64,000 nucleotides of DNA, taken from an uncultured Actinomycetes bacterium (lineage in GTDB: Bacteria > Actinomycetota > Thermoleophilia > Solirubrobacterales > 70-9). The position numbers and the translations under genes are program-made. Below, piece after piece: positions 1,280 to 52,358 of this stretch (within the stretch, counting starts at the first letter, position 1; each line of letters begins with the position of its first letter). The DNA lies in assembly GCA_963832155.1 (NCBI GenBank), contig CAWHTB010000002.1:1024908-1088907 (forward strand), written 5' to 3'. The notes beneath the pieces are model-generated. The model was given only the letters and a program-made list of their open reading frames with translations, was not told the DNA's origin and did no database searches.

Positions 1280-1609
1280 GCTCACACGCATGGGCTACTT
1301 GCTGAAGACGAACTTCTGGAGCAATGCCAAGATGATTAGAGCTTGAATTGCGAGCGCGACTTCCATTCTCTGCTCCCCTAGCGGCGATTAGGCCCCGAGT
1401 GGTTCAGTTCTAGCTGCAGGGAAGGACCACATTGCAATCCCCCGGTCGGCTGAACGGCGAACCCTTGCGGTCCCAGGACGTAACCACAGCCCATACGGCT
1501 CGTCAACTAGGCGTAGCGTCGTCGACGGGAAAACGTCTTTGAAGACACTATATACGGCGTACTGGTAGGCGTTGGCAGAGTAGAACCCCAGATATAGGGT
1601 CCAGGAAGA

Positions 1610-2686
1610 ATGCATTGTCCACGCTGCTTTGTTGACGATGGCAAGCAGAGTCGAACCGAAGTCCGAGAGACTCGGCCCGAGCGCTCAAACGAGCGGAATC
1701 TGGGGGTTCGGCGGCGCCGTCAATGCACGATCTGTGGGCACCGTTTCACGACTATCGAGCGGCCCAAGGCCGCCACGGTCCGTACTGGCGATGGGAAAAC
1801 TGAGGCCTTTGACGAGGACCGGCTGTTCCGGAGCCTGCAGCGTTCAACTGCAGGCGCTGACCTAGAGGACCGCAAAATTCGTGAAGTTGCCGCACAGGTG
1901 CGAAGGGTCGTCGAGAGGCACCGAGGTTGTGTGACGCCTGGGAATCTCGCCCAGCTGTCACTGGAAGAGTTGGGCTGGAGAACCCATGCTCGAGCGCTGT
2001 ATCGGGAACGGACCCCCAGTCTGGCAGATGAGGAGTACACCGCTGTTGGCCTGGTCAAGAAGCGTTTGCCGCGGAATGGTTTGGTCGTGCGAACAGACGA
2101 ACAGCGGTTTGAACCGTTCGATCGCCGGAAACTCCTCACCTCCCTGAGGCTTATTGTTCATCGCCGGGTCAAGGAGGACGCCATAGTGCAGCTCGTAGAT
2201 ACCATCGAGCGCCGGGCTGCAAAAGCCGATGGGCCGATCTCGACCGAAGCGATTCGAAGCTGGGTAGCCGACGGCCTGAGACCGCTGGATCCCTTCGCGT
2301 ACTTGCAAGCCCTCGCGACCGCTCCGGACGCAGACCTCAATGCACTGAGAAGGTTGGCTGGGGAAATTCAGCATGGTCTGGTGTGGAGCCGCGCATTGAG
2401 GCAGTCTGAGCAATTTTCGCGGGACAAGCTGATCGCAAGAATCAAGCGGGCCACGGCCAGCCGAGATGCAATCTCCGACAGCGACATCGAGAACTTTGCG
2501 GCTGAGGTTGGACAGAGGGTGCGTGCGAGAGTGGAGCCGGTGGAGAGCGGTCAGATTGGGCAGTGGGTGCTTGCCTGGCTGAGGCAGCGCGACCCGGTCG
2601 CATTCATCAGCCTTCAACTCGACTTTCAACCGCCCGATAGCCCGGGTGATCTGGTACAGGCGCTTCGGGACGACCGAATTGGGTGA
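1610..2686 (+). CDS. NrdR-like zinc-ribbon protein with three ATP-cone-like modules
   Basis: N-terminus MHCPRC...RRRRQCTICGHRFTTIE (CxxC...CxxC, NrdR signature). Three segments follow with the ATP-cone opening pattern (VRTGDGKTEAFDEDRLFRSL; VVRTDEQRFEPFDRRKLLTSL; VWSRALRQSEQFSRDKLIARI). Codon usage is richer in A/T-ending codons than in neighbours. Confidence 0.7.
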   Translation: MHCPRCFVDDGKQSRTEVRETRPERSNERNLGVRRRRQCTICGHRFTTIERPKAATVRTGDGKTEAFDEDRLFRSLQRSTAGADLEDRKIREVAAQVRRVVERHRGCVTPGNLAQLSLEELGWRTHARALYRERTPSLADEEYTAVGLVKKRLPRNGLVVRTDEQRFEPFDRRKLLTSLRLIVHRRVKEDAIVQLVDTIERRAAKADGPISTEAIRSWVADGLRPLDPFAYLQALATAPDADLNALRRLAGEIQHGLVWSRALRQSEQFSRDKLIARIKRATASRDAISDSDIENFAAEVGQRVRARVEPVESGQIGQWVLAWLRQRDPVAFISLQLDFQPPDSPGDLVQALRDDRIG

Positions 2687-2729
2687 TGGTGTGCGCTAGG
2701 CGTCTGGCCCCACCCTCATTGGAAGAACC

Positions 2730-9087: not shown

Positions 9088-10032
9088 CTATCCGGCCTTG
9101 ACAGTCGTTTCCCTGGCAGGATCGTTGCTGGTCACCTCGGCGGTTTGCACCTCCAGGGGCGCAGTGTCCGACCCGACCTCGGTCCGGCGCAGCCGCTTGC
9201 CGCTCGAGCTTGAGACCCGGTTCAGCCGCTCGCCGCGTGGTTTCGGGGCCCCAAGTGCCTGCGTGCGCTCGATCCGGTGGAGGAACGCCTCCCAATCGGC
9301 CTCCCGGGTACGGCGAGCTTCGAGGTGCTGTCGTTGGGTGCGGCGGTCCCAGAGGTCGAGGCCAACTCGCCAGCCTGAATAGGCAAGGCCGAGGGCAAGC
9401 ACAATCGCGGCCAGCACCAGCAGGGCATTGGAGTCCGAGCCCCCCCGCTCGCTGGAGTTCGCGGGCACAGCAGCGGGCGGCGGAGACGCCGATCTCTCGT
9501 TGCCGCCCTGAGGCGCTTTGGGCAGAGCCACCGCGGCGGCGGTGCCGACGTCCACGTTGGCGGCCTTGGCGATCGGGGCGGGCGGCGCCACCGGCCGGGT
9601 GGCGCTCTCCGCTTGACGCGGGCTCGCGGCATCCTCGAAGGTCGGCGGCGCCGACGATTCCAGTTCGTCGTAGCCAGCTGAACCGGCGGTGTAGGAGGGT
9701 TCTTCGCCGGTCGACGTGACCTGTTCCGAATCGCCGCTGTCGTTGCCGTTGCTGCCGGCGCCGCTTCCGAGCGAACTTCCACGCCGGATTGAGGAAGTCC
9801 CGTCGCTGGAAGTTCCCGTGCCAGGACCCACCGGGGTCCAGCCCGTCGAACCCGGTGAGGAGGCGGCGGGTTCCGCCGGGGCGCTAGGAGATTCGGTCGC
9901 GGTTTCTCCCGGCGGTGGAGCGCCGCCGGATTCTTCTCCGGTCGTCACCGCCCCCGCGGGCGACGCGGCCACCAGGGTCATCGCTGCAACGACTATCGCA
10001 AGCCCAATAGAGCGATGCAGGCGCAGCCTCAT
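9088..10032 (-). CDS. Pro/Ser/Gly-rich secreted protein with C-proximal TM helix
   Basis: ATG at 10032 gives signal-like MRLRLHRSIGLAIVVAAMTLVAASPAGA; long low-complexity region; TM ALLVLAAIVLALGLAYSGW; basic cytoplasmic tail. Divergent from the Ig-repeat gene. Confidence 0.6.
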   Translation of the reverse strand: MRLRLHRSIGLAIVVAAMTLVAASPAGAVTTGEESGGAPPPGETATESPSAPAEPAASSPGSTGWTPVGPGTGTSSDGTSSIRRGSSLGSGAGSNGNDSGDSEQVTSTGEEPSYTAGSAGYDELESSAPPTFEDAASPRQAESATRPVAPPAPIAKAANVDVGTAAAVALPKAPQGGNERSASPPPAAVPANSSERGGSDSNALLVLAAIVLALGLAYSGWRVGLDLWDRRTQRQHLEARRTREADWEAFLHRIERTQALGAPKPRGERLNRVSSSSGKRLRRTEVGSDTAPLEVQTAEVTSNDPARETTVKAG

Positions 10033-10184
10033 TTGCCGACTCGTTCCGTCATAGTTCAAAAGGTGGACGCATATTGTAGATCGGTGTCGGAAACTGCGAC
10101 GAAAAAGTCGCTAAGAGCGAGAAAAAGCTTGGTTTTCAGGGAACGCGGGCGCGCCGGGAGCTTCAACAGGGCGCTCTGATAAGG

Positions 10185-13100
10185 ATGAGAATTTTTCACC
10201 GGACCGCGCTTGGAGGGTCGGCAGGCGCCGGCATCGCGACGTGCCTGGGGTTGGTGCTCGCAGCCACCTCCTCAGCCGCCACGCCGACGCTGGGCGTTAC
10301 GGCCACCGACGCGATCGTCGGGCAGGCGATTCATGCAACCGCTCAACTCTCCGAAAGCACCGATGCCTCCGGGGAGATCTCCTTCGAAGTGTTCGGACCG
10401 GGCGACCCGGGCGACCCGGACTGCTCCGGGCCTGACTTGACGCCGGCTCCGGCGTCGGCGTCAGTGGACGGCGACGGGGAATATTCCTCCGGAAACTTCA
10501 CCCCGCCCGTCGCCGGGAGCTATTTCTGGAGCGCCCATTACCCGGGTGACGTGGACAACGATCCAGCCGAGTCCATCTGCTCAGCGGTTTCGACCGTCGA
10601 TAAGGCTTCACCCTCGCTTGCAGGGTCCGCGACCTCCGGGGTCACCGTCGGCTCGACGATCACCGACGAAGCGACGCTCACCGGAGGTTTTGAAGCCGGC
10701 GGCCAGCTCGTCTTCCGCGCCTTCGGGCCAAACAACCAAGCCTGCGCGGGCGCCCCCAAATACCAAGATACGGTCGCTGTCGACGGCAATGGCTCCTACT
10801 CACCATCTGGATTCGCCCCGGTGCCAGCGGGGCTCTACCGCTGGACCGTCGAATACGAAGGTGACCAAAACAACAAACCGGCCGACTTGGGCTGCGGGGC
10901 TTCCAACCAGTCCTCAGCCGTGAACAGAGCTTCACCGATCCTCTCAGGGTTGGCAACCTCCGTCGTCACCGTCGGCTCTCCGATTCACGACGAGGTGACC
11001 TTCACCGGAGCCTTCTCTCCCACCGGCGAAGTGACTTTCAAGGTCTTCGGGCCGACTGACACCGACTGCTCAGTGCCGTTGGCAACGGATGCCGTGCCCG
11101 TACAGGGTGGCCAGGCTACCTCTGCGAATTTCCTTGCTCAGCAGGCCGGGGAATTCCGCTGGACCGCGGATTACCCCGGGGACGCAAACAACGAACCGGC
11201 CAGCCTGCCTTGCAACGCCACCAACCAGACCTCGACCGTCAACAAAGACTCACCGAACCTTTCAGGGTCGGCGACCTCCACCGTCATGGTCGGTTCGACG
11301 ATCACCGACGAAGCGACGCTCTCCGGCGGCTTTCAGGCCGGCGGTCAGCTCGTCTTCCGCGCCTTCGGCCCCGGCAATGAGACCTGCACGGGCACCCCCC
11401 AACACGAGGAGGCGGTCGCCGTCAACGGCAACGGCTCCTATTCGCCGGCCGGGTTTATCGCGGCACCGGCGGGGTCCTACCGCTGGACCGTCGCTTACGA
11501 AGGGGATGGCAACAACGAACCGGCCAGCCTCCCCTGCAACGCCGCCAACCAGACCTCGACCGTCAACAAAGACTCGCCGAACCTCTCGGGGGCGGCGACC
11601 TCCACCGTCACGGTCGGTTCGACGATCACCGACGAAGCGACCCTCACCGGCGGCTTTCAGCCCAGCGGTCAGCTCGTCTTCCGCGCCTTCGGCCCCGGCA
11701 ACGAGACCTGCATGGGCACCCCCCAATACCAGGAAGCTGTCGCCGTCAACGGCAACGGCTCCTATTCGCCGGCCGGGTTTGTCGCATCTCCCGCGGGGCT
11801 CTACCGCTGGACCGTCGAATACGGAGGCGACGCGAGCAACGAACCGGACAGCTTGGGCTGCAACGCCGCAGGCCAAAGCTCCACTGTCAACAAAGCCTCG
11901 CCGTCGCTCGCGGGGATCGCGAGCTCCGCCGTCGTCGGCTCGCCGATTCACGACGAAGTGACCCTCACCGGGGACTTCTCTCCCACCGGGGAAGTGACCT
12001 TTTCGGTCTATGGGCCGACGGATACCGGCTGTTCGACGCCGCTGGTAACGGGGTCCGTACCCATCCAGGGCAACCACGCCACTTCCGCGAACTTCCTCCC
12101 CCAGCAAGCCGGGGAATTCCGTTGGACCGCGGACTACCCGGGTGACGCGAACAACGAACCGGCCAGCCTCCCCTGCGGCGCCACCAACCAAACCTCGATC
12201 GCAAGCAAAGCCTCACCGAACCTCTCGGGGACGGCGACCTCTGCGATCACGGTCGGTGAAGAGATCACCGACAACGTCACTCTCACCGGCGGCTTTGAGG
12301 CCGGCGGTCAACTCACCTTCCGCGCCTTCGGCCCCAACGACCAAACCTGCGCGACCACTCCCAAATACGAAGATACGGTCACCGTCAACGGCGATGGCTC
12401 CTATTCCCCGTCCCCTCCTGAGTTCGTCCCGGCGCTGGCGGGGCTCTACCGCTGGACCGTGGAATACGGGGGCGACGCGAACAACGAACCGGCCAGCCTG
12501 CCATGCGGGACCACCAACCAGGCTTCGGCGGTCGGCACTGTTTCCGTGACCCTTTCAGCCAGCGCCACCAGCGCCACTGTCGGGGGCTCCGTAACCGCCA
12601 TGGCGTCGATCCAGGAAGGAGCGATTCCGGCCGGGCAGATCACCTTCAAAGCGTTCCCTCCGAGCGACGCGACTTGCTCGGGCGCCGCCGCCTTCAGCTC
12701 GACCGTCGGCGTTTCGGGGCTCGGCTCCTACCGTTCGGCCGCATTCGTGCCTCCTCGGGTCGGCATCTTCCGGTGGACCGTCGGGTACTCGGGCGACCCG
12801 AACCACGCCCCAGCGGCCGTCGGTTGCGGCGGAGCGACGTCCGGTGTCTCCCAGGCAAGGCCCACGATCGCCACCGGCGCCGTCGGGCAGCGATTCGTCG
12901 TCGGTGCCCCGTTCCGTGCCGCTGCGACGCTGCAGGGGGGTTTCGCGCCCGCCGGCACGGTCACCTTTCGGATCTACGGCCCGGGCGCGGGGGACTGTGT
13001 CAAACCGCTCTCGGTCAACACCGTCGCCATCGCCGGGAACGGCGCCTTCCTCTCGGATCCGTTCGTTCCGCAGCGCCCCGGTCGCTACCGGTTCGTGGCG

Positions 13101-13490
13101 AGCTATTCGGGCGACGCGTCGAACCAAGGGGCCGCCGAGGCGTGTGGCTTGGCCGGCCAAATAGCCCAGGCGCAAAAGCGAACGCCGAAAGTGAAGCCGC
13201 GCGCGCGTTTGAGCGGCAGGCAGATCTCGATACGCGCGCGCCTCTCGGGCACGATGTCTCCCTCCGGGGCAATCACCTTTCGCCTCTACGGGCCGGGCAA
13301 CAAGCGGTGCAAAGCTGCCCCCGCCTTCAGCGGCAGTATCGGGGTGAAGTCGAACGGCAGCTACTTGCTGGCCAAGTACCTCGCAACCCAACGAGGCATC
13401 TACCGCCTCAGCGTCGGCTACTCCGGGGACCTGCGCAACCGGCGAGACCCCGGCAGCTGTCGCGCCGCACAGCTTCTCCAGGTCGACTGA
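10185..13490 (+). CDS. secreted Ig-like domain repeat protein (10 tandem modules)
   Basis: Signal peptide, then ten modules of roughly 105-109 aa, each with two conserved Cys and a Y/F-RWT-x-Y-x-GD-x-N motif reminiscent of bacterial Ig-like (Big) repeats. Confidence 0.85.
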   Translation: MRIFHRTALGGSAGAGIATCLGLVLAATSSAATPTLGVTATDAIVGQAIHATAQLSESTDASGEISFEVFGPGDPGDPDCSGPDLTPAPASASVDGDGEYSSGNFTPPVAGSYFWSAHYPGDVDNDPAESICSAVSTVDKASPSLAGSATSGVTVGSTITDEATLTGGFEAGGQLVFRAFGPNNQACAGAPKYQDTVAVDGNGSYSPSGFAPVPAGLYRWTVEYEGDQNNKPADLGCGASNQSSAVNRASPILSGLATSVVTVGSPIHDEVTFTGAFSPTGEVTFKVFGPTDTDCSVPLATDAVPVQGGQATSANFLAQQAGEFRWTADYPGDANNEPASLPCNATNQTSTVNKDSPNLSGSATSTVMVGSTITDEATLSGGFQAGGQLVFRAFGPGNETCTGTPQHEEAVAVNGNGSYSPAGFIAAPAGSYRWTVAYEGDGNNEPASLPCNAANQTSTVNKDSPNLSGAATSTVTVGSTITDEATLTGGFQPSGQLVFRAFGPGNETCMGTPQYQEAVAVNGNGSYSPAGFVASPAGLYRWTVEYGGDASNEPDSLGCNAAGQSSTVNKASPSLAGIASSAVVGSPIHDEVTLTGDFSPTGEVTFSVYGPTDTGCSTPLVTGSVPIQGNHATSANFLPQQAGEFRWTADYPGDANNEPASLPCGATNQTSIASKASPNLSGTATSAITVGEEITDNVTLTGGFEAGGQLTFRAFGPNDQTCATTPKYEDTVTVNGDGSYSPSPPEFVPALAGLYRWTVEYGGDANNEPASLPCGTTNQASAVGTVSVTLSASATSATVGGSVTAMASIQEGAIPAGQITFKAFPPSDATCSGAAAFSSTVGVSGLGSYRSAAFVPPRVGIFRWTVGYSGDPNHAPAAVGCGGATSGVSQARPTIATGAVGQRFVVGAPFRAAATLQGGFAPAGTVTFRIYGPGAGDCVKPLSVNTVAIAGNGAFLSDPFVPQRPGRYRFVASYSGDASNQGAAEACGLAGQIAQAQKRTPKVKPRARLSGRQISIRARLSGTMSPSGAITFRLYGPGNKRCKAAPAFSGSIGVKSNGSYLLAKYLATQRGIYRLSVGYSGDLRNRRDPGSCRAAQLLQVD
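11247..11894 (+). repeat. two adjacent near-identical 324-bp coding repeat units (modules 4 and 5 of the Ig-repeat gene)
   Basis: Units start at 11247 and 11571 (period exactly 324 bp). Both begin GACTC.CCGAACCT and share long identical runs (e.g. ggtcggttcgacgatcaccgacgaagcgac, cagctcgtcttccgcgccttcggccccggcaa). Confidence 0.85.
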
Positions 13491-13530
13491 CCTCACCGAG
13501 CCCGCCTCCGCGGGACCGAGGCAGTCTTGC

Positions 13531-13940
13531 TCAGCCGCGAAGTGCTCGCCAGACAACCCCTGGCCGTCTAGCGACCTTCGGTCCGAGGATCAGGCCGAAT
13601 AGCGTCAGGGCCAGCCAGGGTCGAAGGTGAGGGCTGATCTTGCGGATACGGCCATCGGGTTCCAACTCGAAGACCATCGCGTCGGTCATATGCACAGGCC
13701 CGAGCCGTGCATGCCCCAGAGCGACCCAATGCTCGTTTTCGCCGAGCGTTCGCGTCCAGCGCAGCCCCTTCAGGCTCCCGTACACAGCGCTGAGCAGAAC
13801 CTCGACGTCGTCTCGCCCCGAAAGACCATTCGGCCCGAGATCGGGGAGACGACCTCGATATCCGCGGTGAGCGAACTCATGATCCCGTCGATGTCTCCAG
13901 CCTCGGAGGCAGACAGATAACGCTCCACCGACTCGTCCAT
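13531..13940 (-). pseudogene. NTF2/SnoaL-like protein gene interrupted by a 1-nt frameshift
   Basis: ATG at 13940 reads MDESVERYLSASEAGDIDGIMSSLTADIEVVSPISGRMVFRG. The sequence then continues in another frame as RDDVEVLLSAVYGSLKGLRW...; the switch lies in the C-run at 13816-13819. Confidence 0.6.
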
Positions 13941-14072
13941 GGGATAACCATATGGCGGCTGAGATCCGAAGAGCTTCGGGTGCTGCAGTCGTGCGGGTCA
14001 TCCGATTGTTCATCCTTGATGGCGAGCGTTCGGTACTGGCTCGCCGGAGGGGACCTCACGTAGGAACTAGAT

Positions 14073-14092
14073 ATTAGCTAATCCCTAATAAA
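14073..14092. promoter_or_regulatory. AT-rich motif ATTAGCTAATCCCTAATAAA (contains perfect palindrome ATTAGCTAAT)
   Basis: Read directly; lies just 3' of the two-gene cassette. 16/20 identical to 15555-15574 in the cassette promoter region. Confidence 0.4.
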
Positions 14093-14101
14093 TCTCAGAT
14101 A

Positions 14102-14842
14102 TCAGGAAGCAGCTAATAGCAGCAGGGCGATCACCGCGGCGATGATGACGCTGGTGAACGTGCCAACGAGGAAGTACTCGGTGAGCCCATCGATTTTGGC
14201 TCCATTGTTTTCTCGGCTGATCTCGGGGAAGCGGAGCAGTCCCTTCGCTGCGATCACGAAGCCGGCTCCGGCGAGGTCGCCCGAGACGATCGAAGCGGCG
14301 ACGATCAAGCGCTCCATCGGGCCAAGGAACCGCCCCCCTTTGAGTGGTTCCGGCTTCTCGTCTACCTCGGTGTCTTCCTTGGTCGCTGCGAGCACGAGCA
14401 CGACGATCCGGTTACTCGTCGCGAGCAGGAAGAGAAATGCCCCGACGCCAAGGACGAACTGATCCACGGGCACCAAGCCCGACGCGGCGACGGAGAGGGG
14501 GAGGCTTTCGTACCAGTCCTGCAGCGAGCCCCCGACCGGACTCGCCGATCCACTCGCGGCGACCGTGCCCACGAGCGCGACGGTCGGCAGCACGAGCGCC
14601 CAGACATAGTGTCGCTGGGTTCCGAATTTCCAGTCGACCAGCAGCCAGGCGACCGCGGGCAGGGCGACGATCGTCGTCAGCGCGACCGAGCACCAGTCCA
14701 TGCCGCTCAGTCGCGCCATGCCCCAGGTTGCGACGAGGGTGCCGCCGATCGCGATCGAGGTTCGGAGCCGCACCTTCTCTGGTACCAGCCTCAGCAGGTC
14801 ACCCACCCCGAAGGCGAGCAGGGCGAGAGCCGGCAGGATCAC
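14102..14842 (-). CDS. multi-pass membrane protein (about 7 TM), DUF3307/SatE-like
   Basis: 246 aa; GTG start overlaps the upstream stop (GTGA). Repeated hydrophobic helices; GRFLGPMERLIV...IAAKGLLRF resembles the DUF3307 signature as recalled from memory. Confidence 0.65.
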   Translation of the reverse strand: MILPALALLAFGVGDLLRLVPEKVRLRTSIAIGGTLVATWGMARLSGMDWCSVALTTIVALPAVAWLLVDWKFGTQRHYVWALVLPTVALVGTVAASGSASPVGGSLQDWYESLPLSVAASGLVPVDQFVLGVGAFLFLLATSNRIVVLVLAATKEDTEVDEKPEPLKGGRFLGPMERLIVAASIVSGDLAGAGFVIAAKGLLRFPEISRENNGAKIDGLTEYFLVGTFTSVIIAAVIALLLLAAS

Positions 14843-15574: not shown

Positions 15575-15641
15575 CACAAAAAGCTGCAGATGGATGGTTG
15601 GAGGCTCACCAGGGGTCGGCCCTGATCCTGTTGTCTACTCA

Positions 15642-15715
15642 TCGGGGCGCCCGGATTTGAACCGGGGACCTCACCGACCCGAACGGTGCGCGCTACCAGG
15701 CTGCGCCACGCCCCG
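15642..15715 (-). tRNA. tRNA-Pro (anticodon CGG)
   Basis: Reverse complement CGGGGCGTGGCGCAGCCTGGTAGCGCGCACCGTTCGGGTCGGTGAGGTCCCCGGTTCAAATCCGGGCGCCCCGA folds as a cloverleaf: 7-bp acceptor stem, anticodon loop TTCGGGT, T-loop GGTTCAAATCC. No encoded CCA. Confidence 0.9.
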
Positions 15716-15805
15716 AGAGCGGGGATTATCCCAGAGCGAGGCCGGGACGCGGTGCCGGGACCTCTCCCGCTACTTTTCGCCTGGCCCCGGTTCCCCAAGG
15801 AGACC

Positions 15806-43719: not shown

Positions 43720-44457
43720 ATGTCGGCCAAGATCTCTACTATCGCGCGGATGCCGTTACCCCCAGGCAGGCGTTTCGTCGTTGTCTTGCTCGTGGCTCTG
43801 GGCCTGATGCTGGCCCCGTCCGCGGCGACTCCCGCTGGCCAGATAACCATTCACGGAGCTGCTTCGGGCACGCACTTGAGGCTCTCGGTGGAGGGGCCGA
43901 GGCTGGTCGTCGAAGGCAGGATGGCCCGGGCGAAGACGCGCAGCTGCCGGTTCGTTCGTGGGCACACGCTCGCCGTGTGCCGCCTCGCCGGGGCTTCCGC
44001 GATCGAGGTGACCGGCGGCCCGTCCGGGGACTTCATCCGGGTCGCCGACCGCCTGCCGGTGCCGCTCACCGTCTATCTCGGCGGCGGCTCGGACAAATTC
44101 ATCGGCAACGACGAGCCGGACACCTGCTACCCGCAGGGCTCGCGGCGCAACCGGTGCATCGGTCACGGCGGCAACGACATCTGCATCACCGGCAAGGAAA
44201 ACAGCGACTGCGTCGGCGGGCCCGGCGACGACTACTGCCGCCACGGCCGCGGCAGCGACGGCTGCTGGGGCGGCCCCGGGCGAGACATCTGCGTCATGGG
44301 CCCGGGCCAGGACGGCTGTCACGGCAACGGCGGCAACGACCGCCTCTTCGGCGGCGCCGGTGCGGACCAGCTCTACGGCGGCCGCGGCACCAACTACTGC
44401 GACGGCTCACCCGGTCGCGGCAAGTCCCACTCCTGCACCGTCGGCCCGCGCCGCTGA
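43720..44457 (+). CDS. secreted Cys-rich protein with hemolysin-type (RTX-like) GGxGxD repeats
   Basis: Signal peptide (VVVLLVALGLMLAPSAA); C-terminal run GGNDICITG / GGPGDDYCRHG / GGPGRDICVMG / GGNDRLFGG / GADQLYGG. The start could be ATG 43750. Confidence 0.65.
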   Translation: MSAKISTIARMPLPPGRRFVVVLLVALGLMLAPSAATPAGQITIHGAASGTHLRLSVEGPRLVVEGRMARAKTRSCRFVRGHTLAVCRLAGASAIEVTGGPSGDFIRVADRLPVPLTVYLGGGSDKFIGNDEPDTCYPQGSRRNRCIGHGGNDICITGKENSDCVGGPGDDYCRHGRGSDGCWGGPGRDICVMGPGQDGCHGNGGNDRLFGGAGADQLYGGRGTNYCDGSPGRGKSHSCTVGPRR

Positions 44458-44483
44458 GTCGCTATCGGCCAGAGGCCGGAGAC

Positions 44484-45683
44484 CTATATCCCGCCCACCG
44501 GGTCGACGCCTATCGCCAGCCCCGGGGTGGCGCTCCGGTCTCCGGGAGATGACCTCGATATGCCCCAAGCGCTGGGCCCGCCTCGCTTCCGTTGGCGTTC
44601 CCTCTCGTCGAGGCAGCCCGGCCCATCCGGCCCGGTTCCGTCGCTGATCGCGCCCACGAGTCCCCATGCTCCGCAGAATCCCGCCCAGCCCTGAGACTCG
44701 AGCGGCAAGAGGCTCTCCCAAGTCGGCCACGAGAATCCCGAGGCGATCGACGAGGTGTGGTCGGAAACCAACCCAAGGGTGGGGCGGAGCCGGTGACGGC
44801 CAGAAGTCGGGTAGGTCGCGTGGTCGCCGTCGGCGACGAACCCGACGAGGCGAGTGCTCCCCTGCCATTTCGTTCGGGGGACGGGGCAGGAGAGAAGGGT
44901 GCCGCCGGGAGGGGCGATCGAGCAGGTGGCACCGACCGCTTTGGGAGAGCCATGGGCGGAGTAGGAGACCGCGTCGAGCGTCCAGAGCAAGGAGCCGGGA
45001 GCGTCCTGCTGGAAGAGCAGCGTGATGTTCTCCCAGTCGCCTTGGTGGTTGAAAAGGGGGCCGCCTCCCGGTGCGTCGTTGTAGGGGTAGAAGAACCAGT
45101 AGGAGATGTAAGCCTGCCGGGGGCTCTTGGCAGAGCCGCTTGGGCTGAACAGCTCGCCGTCGTCATAGTAGATCGGCGAATCAGTCACGAATTCATGGCC
45201 GCCGGTCGCCTTCGTGAACGACATGCCGCTCTTCCCGCCTTGATCCAGGTTGGCCTTCAGGTAAAAACCCTCACCGCGGTGGAGGCCGGGTGGGCGGTTC
45301 GCCTTATACGGTCGGGTGTAGTCCGTCACCAAGAACACGGGGCCGCTGCGGTGGCAGAGAAACTCCTTGGTCTGGTATCGCCACCGACTGCCACTCCCCA
45401 CCAGGAGGCCCAGCTTGCGAGTGGCGGTGTTGGTCCAGGGCCCGTCGTAGACCGTCTCGTCCCTACAGGGCTTACGCTCGGCAAACCTGAGCAGCGAGCG
45501 GTCGAGAAACCACGGCGCGCTCGAAGGGCCGTTGTCCTCCTCTGCGTACATCACGAGGAGGGGAGAGAACCGCTGAATCGTGTCCTGGGTGAAGAAATCG
45601 GCCGAGGCAACCGAGCACCGCATCAGCGCGACCAGGACGACCGTCGCGACGAGCAGCCATCGCGCCGCCCACGCGGCCCCCAA
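44484..45683 (-). CDS. secreted Vps62/DUF946-like protein
   Basis: Signal peptide. ISYWFFYPYNDAPGGGPLFNHQGDWENITLLF resembles the WxFYPxN...H.GDWEH core of the Vps62 family (from memory). Confidence 0.55.
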   Translation of the reverse strand: MGAAWAARWLLVATVVLVALMRCSVASADFFTQDTIQRFSPLLVMYAEEDNGPSSAPWFLDRSLLRFAERKPCRDETVYDGPWTNTATRKLGLLVGSGSRWRYQTKEFLCHRSGPVFLVTDYTRPYKANRPPGLHRGEGFYLKANLDQGGKSGMSFTKATGGHEFVTDSPIYYDDGELFSPSGSAKSPRQAYISYWFFYPYNDAPGGGPLFNHQGDWENITLLFQQDAPGSLLWTLDAVSYSAHGSPKAVGATCSIAPPGGTLLSCPVPRTKWQGSTRLVGFVADGDHATYPTSGRHRLRPTLGLVSDHTSSIASGFSWPTWESLLPLESQGWAGFCGAWGLVGAISDGTGPDGPGCLDERERQRKRGGPSAWGISRSSPGDRSATPGLAIGVDPVGGI

Positions 45684-45778
45684 TTTCCTAACCCCTAGCC
45701 CTGTCGCCTCCGAGCGCAGAATTTCTGAAGCCTAGGTACCAAACTGCACCCAGTCAATACTCAGCTATTTATCGACTC

Positions 45779-46207
45779 CTACAAGTTGCGGACTCTCCGA
45801 CCGATCTCCCGATCGAGTGGGTAACCGGCGGACTCCCAGAACCCTCCCGCCACCTCGTCGTCAAAGGCGACCAACGCGGTCACCCGACGGACACCACACT
45901 GGCGTAGGTAGTCCTCGCCGGCCCGCGTCAGCGCCAGCCCGATGCCTTCCCGCCGATACCCATGGCGGACGGCGAGCCGGTACATGTTTCCCCGCCACCC
46001 GTCCCAGGCCGCGATCAGCGCCCCGACGATCTCCCTGCCCTGCTCGGCCACCAATAGAGCAGCGGGAGATTCACCCACCAGCCGCTCAACCTCCTCGAGC
46101 CGATCAACCGTGCTCGCATGCTCACTCCGAGCCTGTGCCCACAGATCCAGTACTGCCGGTACCTCGGACCGCCGACAACGCCGTACGTTGAATCCCTCTC
46201 CCTTCAA
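45779..46207 (-). CDS. GNAT family N-acetyltransferase
   Basis: Acetyl-CoA motif LAVRHGYRREGIGLALTRAGEDYL; TTG start at 46207 is uncertain. Confidence 0.85.
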   Translation of the reverse strand: MKGEGFNVRRCRRSEVPAVLDLWAQARSEHASTVDRLEEVERLVGESPAALLVAEQGREIVGALIAAWDGWRGNMYRLAVRHGYRREGIGLALTRAGEDYLRQCGVRRVTALVAFDDEVAGGFWESAGYPLDREIGRRVRNL

Positions 46208-46220
46208 GTGCGGAGCATAA

Positions 46221-46283
46221 CTCCGCGAATTCCTACACCGCCGGCGTACAACCCCAGCTGCTTGCTGAGGATCTCCTTAGTGA
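46221..46283. repeat. relic copy of the acyl-CoA dehydrogenase 3' end plus flank (imperfect direct repeat of 49209-49260)
   Basis: 46247-46283 is 32/37 identical to 49224-49260. The minus-strand translation is TKEILSKQLGLY versus the gene end MKEILGKQLGL-stop. Confidence 0.6.
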
Positions 46284-46397
46284 ACCGGAGGGTGGGACAA
46301 GCGGGGCGCAGGGGCATCGCGGGGCACGCATTTGCCGCAGATGAACCTTGTTGAGGAAGAGGGCAACGATCTGGTGTGATCGCGTTCTGCTGGTCGG

Positions 46398-46414
46398 TGT
46401 GTCCGGATTGTGTC
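46398..46414. repeat. exact 17-mer TGTGTCCGGATTGTGTC (copy 1)
   Basis: Identical 17-mer in the same orientation at 49158-49174. Confidence 0.75.
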
Positions 46415-46436
46415 GTCGCTGCCGCACCCATTTTGC

Positions 46437-46466
46437 GCGGGTTCGATTGAGCACCCGCTGGTTTTT
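46437..46466 (+). terminator. intrinsic-terminator-like hairpin with no upstream plus-strand gene
   Basis: GCGGGT-tcgattgagc-ACCCGC followed by TGGTTTTTC. Confidence 0.3.
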
Positions 46467-46482
46467 CTGCGATTCTGAGCCG

Positions 46483-47188
46483 ATGGACTGGCTGCGCGGT
46501 CGCAGGAAGCGCAACACGATTTCGGCCGACCCGGGATCTGCGTCGTTTGATCTCGACGCTCCAGGTTCTCGGTTCACGATGAGTCTCGCTCTCGCGGTCG
46601 GGCTTGGCCCGGAATGGATGGAGCACTCGGAGGGCAAGAAGAACTTCGCTCGCACAGCCGTGGCGGAAGAGCTGGGTGAGCCGTGGCTTGCGCGAGATCC
46701 CGACCTTGGAAAGGTGAAGGTCCTCGATGGCAGTGTTGGCCGAGGTGCTTCTGGTTGGATCCCCGTGCTGGAATGGTTCGGTCTGCAAGCGGCGGGGGGG
46801 GCTCGTCGGCCTTGCGGCAGGTCAAGCCGCCAGAGAGGGAATACGGCGAATTCGCGAGAAAATTCGAGAAGCGAAAGCTTCTGGACACGGCCCCCTCGTC
46901 TCTCGCGGATTGGCTGCCGCTCTCGCGACGGAGCACGTCTTCGAGAGCACCGATGAGACCCAGGTACTTCACGTCGAGTTCGCCCAGGAGCCGTCGGTTT
47001 TGGGAGGTCGAGCCCCCACGGAGACGAGCTACACCGGGCTAGAGCCCTGGATCATCTCGCTCGTCAATGGGTCTCGGCGGATTCGATATGTCCTGGTTGT
47101 TGCACCCGACGGCGACGTGCAGGGTTGCATCATGGCCCCTGCCGGGGAGTTCGATCCAATGTTCGGCCTCCTGCGCCCGACTGAATAG
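46483..47188 (+). pseudogene. hypothetical gene split by a frameshift in a G8 homopolymer
   Basis: Frame 1 (MDWLRG...LEWFGLQAAGG) and frame 2 (GLVGLAAGQAAREGIRRIREK...FGLLRPTE) join if one G is removed from the G8 run at 46794-46801. Confidence 0.45.
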
Positions 47189-47217
47189 GCGTAGGAGGTT
47201 CGGTCACCTGGGAAGCG

Positions 47218-49077
47218 TTAACCCTCTCCGGGCATTGAGACGCCCGCCGCCCGCATCGCCACGCCCAGGTTGTGGCGTGCATTCTCTGGCAGAAGCTTTG
47301 AATTTGCCTTAAGGAGGAGAGCGAGTACCTGCCCGGCTTCGGTTCTCGCGGATGGAAAGCCAACTCCTTCGAGCCACGTGAGGTGGTTCCGGAGGAACTC
47401 ACTCAGCTGGTCAAGATCGCCTTCCTCTAGGAGCGCGGAGACGACAAGCGTGTCCACCGTCGGCAGGATTCTGTTGGTCTTCTCGATTCGGCCGGCGAGC
47501 AGAACCCAGAGTCGAGCGACACGGGCATCGCCCGCTACGAGAGCCTGCCGACCCAGGAATGGTGCGAGCCAGGGATCCTCTGGTCGCTTCCTTTTCCACA
47601 ACCGGAGCGCAGGGCTGGCAAGTAGAGGCTGACGATGGATCAGCCACCACAATCTGGCCCTCCAACCGTCTGGCAGGGTTGGAAGTAGCCGCGGTATCCC
47701 AAGCAAAGACCGGGCGTTGCGGGCTGCGAACATCGCCGCCGAATTGGCCCTCAGTTCCTTCCGGTAGTACCTGAGTGCCTCCTTTCGATGGCCGAGGGCT
47801 GCATAGCAATCGCCGATTTGCCAGCTTTGTGGCGATCCCCGCCTGGATGCCGCCTTGTAGTTGGCAAGCGCAGCGGCGGGTTCACGTCGTTCCCAGGCAA
47901 TGTTGGCGCGCAGCCTTGGATTCCCCGGGTTGTCAGGGTCACTCTCCAAGACCTGGGCAATGAGCTCCTCAGCCCCAAGCAGGTCGTGCGCCTCTACTGC
48001 TCCTGCGGCCACGTTGAGGAGCACGTTTGGATCGTCCGGAAATCGACTCCCTATCTCCTGCAATTTCGTGTACGCGTCACTGCGGGAAATCCGGCGCTCG
48101 ACGCTTGCTGCGAACCACTGGTTCTGGACCCAAATGGCGTAGTCGACGCTAGAGATCTCGTTGATGCAGAGATCGTGTACGTAGCGGAGAACCGATTCGT
48201 GATCGTCGCCGAGACCAAGTCTTGCGAGCGCCTCGAGAATCGCGGTTCGCCCGCGAAGGTTTGGGCTGAGGTCTTCGTCCTCTGGGTCTGGGATGACCAG
48301 TATCCGTGGGTCCTCAGCCTCTCGCTCGACTACAAGTTCGCTCGCGAGCACGCCAGCGATTTTCCCAAGGACCTTGAAGTGGGGGACCTTATTGGTGGCT
48401 GCAACGAACTGAGCTAGATCGGTTCCACCGTCTATGTCGTGGCTGGCCGTCATCGTGGGAACGGTTCGGAGTCTGGTCATCAATGGGGGCTTTTCATCAT
48501 GGACCAGCAGCGAGAACTCATATTTGGTCAGGTGAACATCGGGCCGGCCCTCTCGGAAGTGAGCCCACCACTCCCATCGACTGACACCTGCTGCGGCATC
48601 ACCGGTGCCCCGAATGACCATCAGAGCACGCGAAAGCCGCAGCAAACGTTCTGCTTGTGCGTCCGAGAGAGGCAGCGCAATCTGCCTGACCCGAAGTGGT
48701 CCCACTTTGTCGAGATACTCGGTTTCGTCGAAGAAACGGGCCAGCGCGCCAAAATGCGTTTCTGCTGCTTCCCGACCGACAGCCGAGCGAGCTTTGAACT
48801 GGCTCACGAAGACAATTGGCTCGCCTCCCCGGCCCAGCCACCCCCAGTGCCCGAGAACCGCACCGACCACCCCAGCGGGAACCAACAGAGCTGCGCCGAC
48901 CAAGGGCGGAAGCAACAACCAAGCGGCGATGTTGCTCACGAGAAGAAGCACAAGGGCCGCTAGCCACAGGCGCCGTGAGAAAAGGAAGGGCCGCTTAAAA
49001 AGCCAGAGGAATGCCGACAGAGCAACGCGACCAAGAGCAGCGAAGATTCCGCCTGGTAGGGGAAGTTCCGACATCAC
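47218..49077 (-). CDS. membrane-anchored TPR-repeat protein
   Basis: 619 aa. N-terminal hydrophobic helices (LWLAALVLLLVSNIAAWLLLPPLVGAALLVPAGVVGAVL), an unassigned central region, and C-terminal TPR-like repeats (e.g. IGDCYAALGHRKEALRYYRKEL). Lower GC than the genome background. Confidence 0.7.
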   Translation of the reverse strand: MMSELPLPGGIFAALGRVALSAFLWLFKRPFLFSRRLWLAALVLLLVSNIAAWLLLPPLVGAALLVPAGVVGAVLGHWGWLGRGGEPIVFVSQFKARSAVGREAAETHFGALARFFDETEYLDKVGPLRVRQIALPLSDAQAERLLRLSRALMVIRGTGDAAAGVSRWEWWAHFREGRPDVHLTKYEFSLLVHDEKPPLMTRLRTVPTMTASHDIDGGTDLAQFVAATNKVPHFKVLGKIAGVLASELVVEREAEDPRILVIPDPEDEDLSPNLRGRTAILEALARLGLGDDHESVLRYVHDLCINEISSVDYAIWVQNQWFAASVERRISRSDAYTKLQEIGSRFPDDPNVLLNVAAGAVEAHDLLGAEELIAQVLESDPDNPGNPRLRANIAWERREPAAALANYKAASRRGSPQSWQIGDCYAALGHRKEALRYYRKELRANSAAMFAARNARSLLGIPRLLPTLPDGWRARLWWLIHRQPLLASPALRLWKRKRPEDPWLAPFLGRQALVAGDARVARLWVLLAGRIEKTNRILPTVDTLVVSALLEEGDLDQLSEFLRNHLTWLEGVGFPSARTEAGQVLALLLKANSKLLPENARHNLGVAMRAAGVSMPGEG

Positions 49078-49157
49078 GCGCAGGCTAGCGGTGTGCCTTA
49101 TTCGATACCCGCGAATCCCTCGGACTGCTTTGCTTGGGTCGAGCAGGCACGGCGCGA

Positions 49158-49174
49158 TGTGTCCGGATTGTGTC
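49158..49174. repeat. exact 17-mer TGTGTCCGGATTGTGTC (copy 2)
   Basis: Identical to 46398-46414. Confidence 0.75.
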
Positions 49175-49208
49175 CGCCTAGCGCCGAGGGCAACTCAGAA
49201 CTCTAGAA

Positions 49209-49260
49209 AGCCCCGCAAATCCTTACAACCCCAGCTGCTTCCCTAGGATCTCCTTCATGA
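49209..49260. repeat. 3' end and flank of the acyl-CoA dehydrogenase gene (partner of the relic at 46221-46283)
   Basis: See 46221-46283; includes the last 12 codons of the gene at 49223..50401. Confidence 0.6.
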
Positions 49261-50401
49261 TCTCGTCGGTGCCGCCGCCGATTGGGCCGAGGCGGGCGTC
49301 GCGGACGGCGCGCTCGATGCCGTACTCGCGCATGTAGCCGTAGCCGCCGTGGATCTGGAGGGACTGGTCGGCGATCTCTAGGACGCCGCGCTGGGTGATC
49401 AGCTTCGCCATCGTCACCTCTTTGATGCAGTCCTGGCCGGTATGGAAGAGGCGCAGGGCGTCGTAGGTGAGGGCGCGGGCCACGTCGGCCTGGGTCGACA
49501 TCTCGGCGACCTGGTGGCGGACCGTCTGGAATTTGCCGATCGGGCGGCCGAAGGCCTGGCGCTCGAGGGCGTAGTTGACGGTGATCTCGATCAGGCGCTG
49601 CATCGCCCCGACGGCCCCGATCGCCATCAGCAGCCGCTCCCAGGCGAAGTTGGCCATGATCAGTTTGAAGCCGCCGTTCTCCTCGCCGAGCAGGTTCTCG
49701 GCCGGGACCTCGACGTCGGTGAAGGAGAGCTCGCCGGTGTCGGAGGAGTGCCAGCCCATCTTCTCCAGCTTCTGCGCGACCTCGTAGCCGGGCATCTCCC
49801 GCTCGAGGACGAGGAAGGAGATGCCATGGTGGCCGCCCTCCTGGGTCGTCTTGCAGGCGCAGACGAGGAAATCCGCGCGAACACCGTTGGTGATGAAGGT
49901 CTTGGCGCCGTTGACCACGTAGCCGTCGCCCACCCGCTCGGCCGTGGTGGTGATGCCGGCGACGTCGGAGCCGGCGCCGGGCTCGGTGACCCCGAGGGCG
50001 CCGATCTTCTCGCCGGCGATCCCGGGAACGAGCCACCGCTGCTTCTGCTCTTCGGTGCCGAAGTTGAAGATCGGCGGCATCGCGATCGAGGCGTGGGCGT
50101 TGAGTCCGGCGGCGACGCCGCCGGAGCCGCCGGAGCGGGCCAGCTCTTCGACCCAGATGGCGTCGTGCAGGTGGGTGCCGCCCTGGCCGCCGTACTCCTC
50201 CGGGAACTTCAGCCCAAGGAAACCGAGCTCGGCGCAGCGCGAGTACAGCTCACGAGGGAATTCCCGCGCCGCCTCCCACTCGTCGACGTTGGGGGCGATC
50301 TCCTTGGAGACGAAGCGGCTGACGGTCTCCCGCAGCTCCTCGTGCTCCTCGCCGAACGGCGGCGGCGTCGCCCGCCGGCCAGTGTCCTTGACGACCGTCA
50401 C
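49223..50401 (-). CDS. acyl-CoA dehydrogenase
   Basis: 392 aa. Typical ACAD blocks (GVTEPGAGSD, FITNG, IHGGYGYMREYGIERAVRDARLGPIGGGTDEI); GTG start overlaps the upstream stop. Confidence 0.95.
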   Translation of the reverse strand: MTVVKDTGRRATPPPFGEEHEELRETVSRFVSKEIAPNVDEWEAAREFPRELYSRCAELGFLGLKFPEEYGGQGGTHLHDAIWVEELARSGGSGGVAAGLNAHASIAMPPIFNFGTEEQKQRWLVPGIAGEKIGALGVTEPGAGSDVAGITTTAERVGDGYVVNGAKTFITNGVRADFLVCACKTTQEGGHHGISFLVLEREMPGYEVAQKLEKMGWHSSDTGELSFTDVEVPAENLLGEENGGFKLIMANFAWERLLMAIGAVGAMQRLIEITVNYALERQAFGRPIGKFQTVRHQVAEMSTQADVARALTYDALRLFHTGQDCIKEVTMAKLITQRGVLEIADQSLQIHGGYGYMREYGIERAVRDARLGPIGGGTDEIMKEILGKQLGL

Positions 50402-50850
50402 GCGGGGCTTTCCTCGCTCTTAGTAGGAGCCGTCCAGTCCTCGAGCATCCTGTAGCCGCGCGCCTTGTGGTCGAAGCCGAGCAGGTCGCCCTGGGGATTC
50501 TTGGGTCCGCCGTGGTGGTAGGCACGCACCTCAGCGATCTTGCCGTCGCGGATCAGGAACCACTCGGTGCCGCGGTCGAGCCGACGCTCGCCGCTCTTGG
50601 GATCGCGCCAGGTCATCGTCCACTCGATTACCACCTGGTCGCCTTCCTCGATCACGTTCTCGATGTACCACTGGGCGTCGATCGTCGATACCCCCAGCGC
50701 CGCATAGTCGCCGATCGTCTTCGCTCCCTCGTGCGGGCCGAGCCGGGTGTAGTAGTGGACGGCGTCGTCGGTGAAGTGGGCCGTGACCCCCGCGGCATCG
50801 CCCGTATTGAGGGCTTTGTAGTAGGCCTGGACGCGCTCGGTGCCAGTCAT
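50398..50850 (-). CDS. NTF2/SnoaL-like (ketosteroid isomerase-like) protein
   Basis: 150 aa; YYKALNTGDAAGVTAHFTDDAVHY...IRDGKIAEVRAYH. Confidence 0.75.
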   Translation of the reverse strand: MTGTERVQAYYKALNTGDAAGVTAHFTDDAVHYYTRLGPHEGAKTIGDYAALGVSTIDAQWYIENVIEEGDQVVIEWTMTWRDPKSGERRLDRGTEWFLIRDGKIAEVRAYHHGGPKNPQGDLLGFDHKARGYRMLEDWTAPTKSEESPA

Positions 50851-50922
50851 AGGACGAAGGTGCTACAAAGAATTTGCAGACAACGCGTTTCGCGTGCGCT
50901 TTTCTTCTCTAGCGTGCTATCC

Positions 50923-51123
50923 ATGGAGCGGACGATGTGGACCGACGAGCGACTTGACGATCTCTCACACCGGGTCGACGCCGGCTTTGACCGAGTCGAC
51001 AAGGACATCCGGGAGCTGCGCGCAGACGTCGGCTCCCTCCGGCTGGCGATCTTCCAGGTAGGAGGAGGCTTGGGCATCGGCCTGATCGGCGTCATTGCCT
51101 CGATCCTCATCAGCGGCGGCTAG
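50923..51123 (+). CDS. small tail-anchored membrane protein
   Basis: 66 aa from ATG 50923: a charged coiled-coil-like N-part, then GGGLGIGLIGVIASILISGG. The upstream part of the track ORF is shadow of the minus-strand gene. Confidence 0.4.
   Translation: MERTMWTDERLDDLSHRVDAGFDRVDKDIRELRADVGSLRLAIFQVGGGLGIGLIGVIASILISGG

Positions 51124-51140: not shown

Positions 51141-52358
<1,218 letters not shown>

Follow-up and report, generated by a model that had tools for sequence, protein, structure and literature searches.

A Low-G+C Islet at the 3' End of an Acyl-CoA Dehydrogenase Gene Is a Probable Integrase-Less Derivative of a Site-Specific Integrative Element in Solirubrobacterales

Results

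Genes and Repeats of the Islet

We studied an islet of about 3 kb in a stretch of 64 kb from an uncultured Solirubrobacterales bacterium (contig CAWHTB010000002.1). This whole stretch is called the window, and coordinates are positions within it unless another locus is named. The islet lies between a GNAT acetyltransferase gene and an intact acyl-CoA dehydrogenase gene. It contains two convergent genes, namely a frameshifted open reading frame (ORF), orfA, and the gene of a membrane-anchored tetratricopeptide repeat (TPR) protein, and both stand between two pairs of direct repeats (table 1). The initial annotation, which was made from the letters alone, had described the same two genes and a poly-G frameshift, and the homopolymer is a run of eight G. 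The islet was inserted at the last codons of the dehydrogenase gene, and it is likely an integrase-less derivative of a site-specific integrative element that uses a tyrosine recombinase.

Table 1. Features of the islet and its borders in the window. The att names follow the proposed integration model.
Feature	Position	Strand	Remarks
GNAT acetyltransferase gene	45779..46207	-	PF00583, E=3.7e-12; L001 orthologue 86% aa identity
Native intergenic flank, B' side of the predicted old attB	46208..46246	.	From the L001 alignment; moved 3 kb by the insertion
attR core (relic), decayed last 12 dehydrogenase codons and stop	46247..46283	-	Reads TKEILSKQLGLY
P arm between B-right and core	46284..46394	.	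Aligns with the ~120-nt right end of 16 related elements
B-right, 17-mer TGTGTCCGGATTGTGTC	46395..46414	.	Exact repeat
orfA, frameshifted cargo gene	46483..47188	+	Likely true start Met32 at 46576
G8 homopolymer with +1 frameshift in orfA	46794..46801	+	
TPR protein gene, membrane-anchored, 618 aa, intact	47218..49074	-	Most likely start 49074
Tyrosine integrase remnant, 14 codons	49138..49179	+	Int residues 362-375; includes B-left 49155-49174
P' arm, B-left to dehydrogenase stop	49175..49222	.	Aligns with the family left end GGATTAGCAGGGG; 73% mean identity
attL core, present last 12 dehydrogenase codons	49224..49260	-	MKEILGKQLGL
Target gene, acyl-CoA dehydrogenase, intact, 392 aa	49223..50401	-	PF02771, PF02770, PF00441

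The outer repeat is formed by the last 12 codons of the dehydrogenase gene (49224-49260) and a relic copy of them beside the GNAT gene (46247-46283). Direct reading gave 32 identical positions out of 37, as noted earlier, and a repeat search extended the similarity to 48 nt at 79%. When a 38-nt query for this core was allowed up to 12 mismatches, these were the only two sites in the 64 kb. A further similarity between the flanks (46221-46234 and 49209-49221) had also been pointed out. It does exist; however, it covers few nucleotides, the two segments are offset by 11 nt, and its meaning is uncertain. The inner repeat, here called B, is the 17-mer TGTGTCCGGATTGTGTC, which occurs exactly and in the same orientation at 46398-46414 and 49158-49174. 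It extends to 19 of 20 identical nucleotides over 46395-46414 and 49155-49174. At up to three mismatches there were only these two matches in the window, against 0.11 expected by chance. The order relic, B, cargo, B, gene end (A'-B-cargo-B-A) is thus as the initial annotation gave it. In addition, B is composed of two GACAC(A) half-sites that are 11 nt apart, that is, one helical turn. Each B site lies 70-85 nt upstream of an inward-reading cargo gene.

The base composition of the islet is foreign to its surroundings. None of the 611 sliding 3-kb windows (mean 68.3%, sd 2.6) has a G+C content as low as that of the islet (61.1%), and no other stretch of the 64 kb deviates as much in tetranucleotide use, which bears out its description as a lower-G+C islet. 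The G+C content at third codon positions (GC3) is 0.65 in the TPR gene and 0.67 in orfA, against 0.87-0.97 in the core genes on either side (ACAD, SnoaL, ACAD2, and ECH; RTX and HisPhos). It should be noted that low G+C (62-67% in 300-nt windows) already starts at about 44,950, before the insertion, and spans a 399-aa hypothetical gene (hyp399) and the GNAT gene. Both of these genes are also found in the closest relative, which lacks the insertion (see below).

Some further features of the region were recorded. The 399-aa gene and the GNAT gene (44484-46207) have about 66% G+C with GC3 values of 0.83 and 0.74, and they share 79% and 86% protein identity with the closest relative, while the flanking genes share 93-100%. 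No Pfam or NCBIfam family was found for the 399-aa protein. Two other parts of the window, at about 1200-3000 and 9500-11000, are also G+C-poor (61-63%) or tetranucleotide-deviant. The sole tRNA gene of the window encodes tRNA-Pro (15641-15716), and no intact integrase, transposase, or tRNA gene was found in or beside the islet. An Rfam scan of 44000-51000 with permissive thresholds gave no RNA family, and a scan for sigma-70 promoters and terminators gave nothing above shuffled sequences.

Empty Site in the Closest Relative

A scan with the dehydrogenase protein, taking one genome per species, gave 80 loci besides the window. Nearly all of them come from metagenome-assembled genomes (MAGs) of uncultured Solirubrobacterales, and six are labelled Actinomycetota, Actinomycetes, or Conexibacteraceae. 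The loci of relatives and the metagenome contigs are named by labels such as L001, L027, and L090. The relatives are recorded as soil MAGs from Nanopore sequencing (PMC12313526), and the window seems to be derived from a Nanopore MAG as well. The window dehydrogenase shares 98% aa identity with that of L001 and 86-94% with those of the 79 other species. Exact-protein look-ups with the window dehydrogenase and TPR ORFs gave no match, probably because of start-codon choice or a missing record.

The closest relative is L001, with 95% nucleotide identity over 11 kb. In this locus the GNAT gene begins 40 nt past the dehydrogenase stop codon. Positions 1-11179 of L001 align with window 60407-49223, and positions 11147-14713 are colinear with window 46278-42738 at 89%. 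Since nucleotides 11147-11179 of L001 align twice (window 49255-49223 and 46278-46246), the insertion in the window is flanked by a duplicated gene end. It measures 2,977 bp between equivalent core positions (~46247/46284 to 49223/49260). L001 itself has a single core and an unoccupied target without any scar. Furthermore, the distance from the dehydrogenase to the next conserved gene is less than 100 nt in at least ten further species. The GNAT gene is the ancestral downstream neighbour of the dehydrogenase and lies outside the insertion.

The initial annotation had suggested that foreign cargo was inserted at the 3' end of the dehydrogenase gene with target duplication, and that a relative might have the GNAT gene adjoining the dehydrogenase. 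L001 bears out both suggestions. The empty site exists, the repeats are not dispersed ones, and the composition of the islet differs strongly from that of the window. In a wider view, the interval between the dehydrogenase and the histidine phosphatase gene is hypervariable across the 80 species: it can be as short as 40 nt or reach about 10 kb or more.

A Family of Insertions at the Same Codons

About 20 of the 80 other species, and 47 contigs of JGI soil and rhizosphere metagenomes, also have an insertion at these last dehydrogenase codons, with sizes of about 1-10 kb. The metagenome contigs were retrieved by the right-end pattern of B, gap, and core, and they therefore match the spacing from B to core by construction. 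Among the 80 species, 16 have a second core, which lies 1.1-9.8 kb downstream of the dehydrogenase. In most of these 16 loci, the distance from the start of the first core to B is 81-84 nt, and that from B to the second core is 136-140 nt (the latter spacing holds in 14 of the 16). The corresponding values in the window are 81 nt and 136 nt.

Thus, the ends of the family have a common architecture: core, about 45 nt, B, cargo, B, about 120 nt, and core. The left arm of about 100 nt comprises the stop codon, GGATTAGCAGGGG, about 25 variable nucleotides, and then GGACACAATCCGGACACATCGCG. The right arm of about 170 nt comprises B, about 120 nt, and then TCATG with the core. The left arm is gone in L003, L005, L008, and L019. 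The P arm of the window has a mean identity of 70% to the family members. Nearly all elements have 60-66% G+C, against 67-70% in the adjacent dehydrogenase gene. Because the arms are fixed across the family, the two repeats of the window are attachment arms of one element family and not a dispersed repeat. The repeats had been regarded as a partial target duplication. This holds for the core, whereas the 17-mer is a conserved part of both att arms of the family.

The att sites of the window copy are decayed. Its two cores differ at 6 of 38 positions, which is the most in the family (0-5 in the others). Compared with a family-type core that was built with the CTG codon of the window, the relic has 4 differences in 38, which change ATG to CTA and the stop codon to TAC. 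TCATG, which is invariant elsewhere in the family, and the stop are thereby gone from the relic. Amid this decayed att sequence, the two copies of the 17-mer B have been kept in full (34 of 34 nt). Under equal decay the probability of such a pattern would be about 0.02, and this is a weak hint of continuing constraint on B.

The islet also keeps a trace of an integrase. A tblastn search with the integrase of L027 found 12 of 14 identical residues at 49138-49179, and on the dehydrogenase side the similarity to the family ends at about 49136, some 20 nt past B. No other int or xis signal was found in the 64 kb. The earlier statement that no integrase is associated with the islet is correct for an intact gene; however, this 14-codon stub is present, and int and xis occur in the relatives. 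Integrase stubs of differing lengths were also found in L036, L044, L066, L093, L129, and element 1 of L090. Among these, L036, L044, and L093 are integrase-less units that retain both arms. Independent losses of this type are frequent in the family.

Several contigs carry more than one unit. L090 and L111 have tandem arrays that mix integrase-less and integrase-bearing units, and such arrays indicate that accretion happens in the family. They lend indirect support to the idea that a unit may be mobilised after accretion, and in principle an integrase-less unit might travel with a neighbour or be moved in trans. In L111, five cores (43, 6280, 7411, 9710, and 10551) form an array of up to four units behind the dehydrogenase. 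L099 has three cores (3203, 4335, and 5532), and L090, L095, L102, and L128 have two each. Array units of 0.8-2.3 kb ending with B, P arm, and core occur in L099, L102, L111, and L128, and some of them measure only 0.8-1.2 kb. PIN/antitoxin, DUF433, and DUF4143 cassettes recur in these arrays, and one unit with the same odd core variant was found in contigs from two samples (L102 and L111). In addition, many lineages (L111 at 43-160 and 10551-10640, L092, L099, L105, L108, L110, L117, and L118) have a hairpin that resembles a terminator (TTTTCCCCAC-TGGC-GTGGGGAAAA) after the dehydrogenase stop codon. L111 has the hairpin behind its first core and again behind its last, which makes the duplicated att region about 90 nt long in that lineage.

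Integrase, Excisionase, and Cargo of Other Family Members

Ten loci (L007, L021, L026, L027, L046, L054, L058, L067, L069, and L077) contain an ORF of about 400 aa that reads toward the dehydrogenase and is continuous with the left arm. Its product is a tyrosine integrase with PF00589 (E=1.7e-17) and the SAM-like N-terminal domain PF14659, and the catalytic motif LDVYAHV is visible. The nearest phage relatives are the tyrosine integrases of Gordonia and Arthrobacter phages, with about 30% identity. The NCBIfam model for integron integrases gave 26.8 bits, against a cut-off of 265. Directly upstream of int there is a gene for a 99-aa HTH_17 protein of the excisionase type (PF12728, E=2.6e-10), which is followed by XRE-type regulators.

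About 27 family proteins, a subset of the ORFs of the elements, were scanned against Pfam and/or PADLOC. The cargo of the sister elements includes a PDC-S06 protein (PADLOC, E=6.5e-159), a CBASS oligonucleotide cyclase (1.9e-93) beside a multi-pass membrane protein, an SNF2 helicase with a DNA methylase, and PIN_3 and PIN toxins with small partners. Furthermore, there are DUF4143 ATPases, DUF6414, DUF433, and DUF4062 proteins, a ThiF-like protein, and a trypsin-like protease. No relaxase, coupling protein, type IV secretion system, FtsK-like Tra, or Rep protein was found in the window element or among the scanned proteins. Likewise, capsid, tail, terminase, and replication families were absent among the scanned proteins, which come from elements of up to about 10 kb.

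The reading frame of the integrase has an unusual end. The ORF has no stop codon before the att core, and in an integrated element it runs on for 80 nt into the dehydrogenase gene, on the opposite strand, before it ends. It is located at the left end, at about 11065-12350 in most of the ten loci, and B-left within the ORF reads RRDVS(G/E)(L/S)CPP. The integrated tail has 89 aa after TLDVY in all ten loci. In a reconstructed circular junction, the tail would be 96 aa in seven of eight elements. Integration would therefore swap the C-terminal tail of the integrase, if it is translated. The tail lengths are kept despite many substitutions and may not be due to chance. In L026 (about 11224-12349), the integrase is split into two frames at residue 184, which could be a pseudogene or a Nanopore homopolymer error.

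Cargo of the Window Copy

The two cargo genes lie between the arms. With one G removed, orfA encodes 234 aa. A search with this protein gave 49 proteins, most of 180-269 aa and 50-84% identical, and no Pfam domain was found in any of them. DNA alignment with the intact homologues of L088 and L090 placed the extra base exactly in the G8 run. The islet is also present in an independent run (X1), whose contigs have an Illumina-type adapter trace and a depth of about 3-7x. A contig of 2,092 nt from this run is identical to the window over 46479-48570, with no differences and no gaps. A Nanopore homopolymer error was considered as the cause of the frameshift and was rejected, because this contig is identical there. 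orfA is a pseudogene or a slippage-prone gene, and the overall account takes it to be a pseudogene. At the place of the G8 run, the homologues have an interrupted GGnGGn stretch; the run arose through substitutions there. Slippage in this run could switch orfA on and off; one length was seen in the single run X1.

An orfA homologue (82% aa identity) is present in an element with xis and int in L090. Over its first 159 residues, at which point the contig ends, this integrase shares 96% identity with the L027 enzyme. Another homologue in L095 stands directly beside B-right, as in the window. On the basis of these two homologues, orfA can be assigned to the element family. No orfA homologue was found in the 80 dehydrogenase loci. 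Neither the TPR protein nor the downstream ORF of orfA (153 aa) had a PADLOC match at E<=1e-3. NCBIfam and Pfam gave nothing for orfA and only sub-threshold TPR repeats for the TPR protein. Neither of the two gene products has a domain typical of recombinases or transfer proteins.

The TPR protein has 20 homologues with about 42-53% identity, all from Solirubrobacterales or soil metagenomes. In its AlphaFold2 model (pLDDT 81) there are transmembrane helices at the N-terminus, an alpha/beta domain at residues ~87-250, and a TPR superhelix. A Foldseek search with the full model returned generic TPR proteins only (for example OGT, IFIT, and APC). The middle domain, when modelled separately (pLDDT 66), gave weak matches to FlgT-, HpaA-, PelC-, and LptE-like folds with TM-scores of at most 0.42. 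These predicted similarities suggest an envelope-associated scaffold and are too weak to name a function.

Homologues of the TPR gene in L081, L085, and L086 lie in other islands at unrelated sites of Solirubrobacterales, with tyrosine integrases, a TrwC relaxase, triple XRE regulators, and AbiEi among their neighbours. Since the homologues stand in other variable regions near integrases, the TPR gene appears to be mobile accessory cargo. No TPR homologue was found in the 80 dehydrogenase loci or the 47 metagenome contigs. In L082-L084, the homologues are located beside an ECF sigma gene. An anti-sigma role was considered for the TPR protein and was not adopted, because this neighbourhood is not conserved. 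By association, one may guess at a defence or envelope role for the TPR protein.

Discussion

Origin of the Islet

The results of the comparative analysis are best explained if the islet descends from an element of the family described above. A family member would integrate by integrase-mediated recombination between attP and attB, and attB would be the last codons of the dehydrogenase gene. The attP site would carry a copy of those codons; the gene would be rebuilt at attL, and the displaced copy would become the relic at attR. Because attP would bring these codons along, the dehydrogenase stays intact and a second 3' end is left at attR. A later internal deletion or replacement would have removed int (except for 14 codons), xis, and the regulators, and the TPR gene is now found in that place. 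The distance between B and the core is about 45 nt on the integrase side and about 120 nt on the other. Judging from its position and conservation, B is most likely an arm-type binding site for the recombinase or Xis.

Since only an int stub is present at the islet, the window copy is a derivative and not an autonomous member of the family. We infer that it is not self-mobile, and at most it could be moved in cis or in trans by a related integrase-bearing element that arrives at the same site. The 6 of 38 differences between its cores, the lost TCATG and stop codon, and the orfA pseudogene are signs of age.

Several points weigh against this explanation. Excision products, circular forms, and integration events were not seen for any member of the family. 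The JGI metagenome contigs had no match to a strict attP pattern (B, gap, core, gap, and B), the IMG/VR viral contigs had none to the B-gap-core pattern, and run X1 at a depth of 3-7x contained no skip or joint reads. One metagenome contig, L136 (2039-3357), reads B, P arm, core, P' arm, B, and int without a dehydrogenase, and it may represent either an excised circle or the junction of two tandem elements. For B, the proposed role is deduced from position and conservation. The attL junction (49063-49349) is outside the independent short-read contigs. In addition, int may have been lost by decay in place, or the element may have arrived already integrase-less.

Another point of this kind is that the attL and attR cores within a genome share variants that are specific to the host lineage. 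Shared variants were seen in L036, L046, L066, L027, L067, and the window; for example, AAAGAGATCATCGGCAAGACG is present in both copies of L036. A fixed short crossover between constant attP and attB sites would not predict such variants. Possibly, the elements are transferred among near-identical hosts only, the repeats are homogenised by homologous crossover, or the exchanged segment is longer.

Alternative Explanations

The alternative that survives best is that the islet is still an active, non-autonomous cassette, one that is inserted and excised by family integrases acting in trans or, after accretion, in cis. We consider this unlikely. According to this explanation, the 3' end of the dehydrogenase would be a platform, similar to an integron, on which att-bounded cassettes of defence or toxin-antitoxin genes accumulate. 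Both B sites are intact, while the relic core has 4 differences in 38 and the arms have about 70% identity. Several independent integrase-less units keep both arms (L036, L044, and L093). Furthermore, there are the arrays of B-P arm-core units (L099, L102, L111, and L128) and the one unit with the same core variant in two samples. However, the attR core of the window is without the invariant TCATG and stop, orfA is broken, and there is no integrase at the site or elsewhere in the 64 kb. In addition, the varied lengths of the integrase stubs point to ordinary deletions, and no circular or empty-site reads were found, at a depth of only about 3-7x. In its general form, the idea that family integrases insert, stack, and swap short att-bounded cassettes at this gene end, including integrase-less ones, is likewise improbable on present evidence.

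A prophage remnant is far less probable. The islet would then be what is left of a degraded temperate phage whose attB was the dehydrogenase 3' end. In favour of this, the family encodes a tyrosine integrase of the phage (lambda-like) type, and the nearest annotated relatives of this enzyme are from actinophages. However, the identity to phage integrases is only about 30%, the scanned family proteins include no capsid, tail, terminase, or replication match, and the viral contigs of IMG/VR lack the B-gap-core pattern. The cargo also consists of defence or toxin-antitoxin modules.

The initial annotation had offered a second possibility, that a third paralogous acyl-CoA dehydrogenase locus has decayed and the relic is its last trace. 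We regard its chance as negligible: two dehydrogenases with about 52% aa identity do lie nearby (49223-50401 and 51141-52358), but the similarity stops at codon -12 and runs into the family P arm, the relic matches the end of the first dehydrogenase while the paralogue at 51141-52358 has no copy of the core (38-nt query, up to 12 mismatches), L001 has a clean empty site, the same relic and arm accompany integrases in other species, and no islet ORF has an Acyl-CoA_dh domain. Equally, hardly anything speaks for an assembly or binning artefact, in which 3 kb were misjoined into the MAG chromosome: the Nanopore origin of the records and the uncovered attL junction would allow it, but the X1 contigs cover the attR junction (45906-46490) and the interior (46479-48570) without differences, the junction architecture equals that of dozens of other loci, and both junctions are in the expected register.

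Comparison with Known Systems

Elements of the ICESt1/ICESt3 family are integrated at the 3' end of fda in Streptococcus thermophilus, and accretion that joins integrative and conjugative elements (ICEs) or integrative and mobilizable elements (IMEs) with cis-mobilizable elements (CIMEs) is known for them. The islet is similar to a CIME, as it is flanked by the attL and attR of a tyrosine-recombinase element and its integration and transfer genes are lost. It also resembles the ICE/IME-CIME systems in that the target is the 3' end of a protein gene that the element rebuilds, and in the accretion with intact relatives in L090 and L111. The window copy is a CIME in the defined sense, since CIMEs are elements that retain attL and attR and have lost the recombination genes (PMC5704250). 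However, the parent family has no detectable conjugation or mobilisation genes among the scanned proteins. Its units go down to about 0.8-1.1 kb, its host is an uncultured actinobacterial order, and its mobility is putative.

Actinomycete integrative and conjugative elements (AICEs) of the pSAM2 type carry rep and FtsK-like tra genes and mostly have tRNA genes as targets. The present family shares with them the actinobacterial host, an int-xis pair that adjoins att, and an arm-binding, lambda-like integrase type. However, no rep or FtsK-like tra was seen in the family, and its target is not a tRNA gene.

The islands at dusA (PMC4482086) are similar in having a dedicated integrase family that uses one site in one gene of many species, with variable cargo and with direct repeats derived from the target gene. 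However, their insertion point is at the 5' end of dusA (PMC4482086), whereas the present family inserts at the last 12 codons. The family integrase also differs: its gene is oriented toward the target, and the ORF continues across the att core.

The compact combination of int and cargo at a fixed hotspot is reminiscent of defence islands and hotspots (PMC10121019, PMC10201445) and of tycheposons (bioRxiv 10.1101/2020.12.28.424599), and the relatives carry PDC-S06, a CBASS cyclase, an SNF2 helicase with a methylase, and PIN toxin-antitoxin pairs. In contrast, the window cargo (the TPR protein and orfA) matches no known defence family, and the target is again not a tRNA gene.

There is only a resemblance to integrons, as a tyrosine recombinase stands at the end of an array of short cassettes (L099 and L111). 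The integrase is not IntI by its score (26.8 bits against 265). Moreover, the repeated sites are direct repeats of arm plus core of about 170 nt and not attC hairpins, and the cassettes hold whole operons.

Integration at gene 3' ends, CIMEs, accretion, and defence cargo are already established, and nothing here is conceptually new. We found no description of this family, its target, and its host group in the literature searched.

Implications

For the window, the finding turns a low-G+C patch into a dated and bounded insertion with a probable mode of origin, in which orfA would be a pseudogene and the TPR gene a horizontally acquired cargo gene. With a core of 37 nt and arms that are defined, the integrase-att pair is a candidate tool for site-specific integration in high-G+C Actinomycetota. 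If the dehydrogenase 3' end were an exchange platform after all, soil Solirubrobacterales would have an integron-like, strain-variable store of defence and toxin-antitoxin modules. The TPR protein would then be a phage-exclusion or envelope-defence gene product, and the 17-mers would be functional recombination sites. For the family as a whole, the insertions reveal a recurrent integration hotspot and a compact int-xis family in an abundant, uncultured order of soil actinobacteria. Since this family carries recognisable defence systems, its variable slots are a reasonable place to seek new defence genes.

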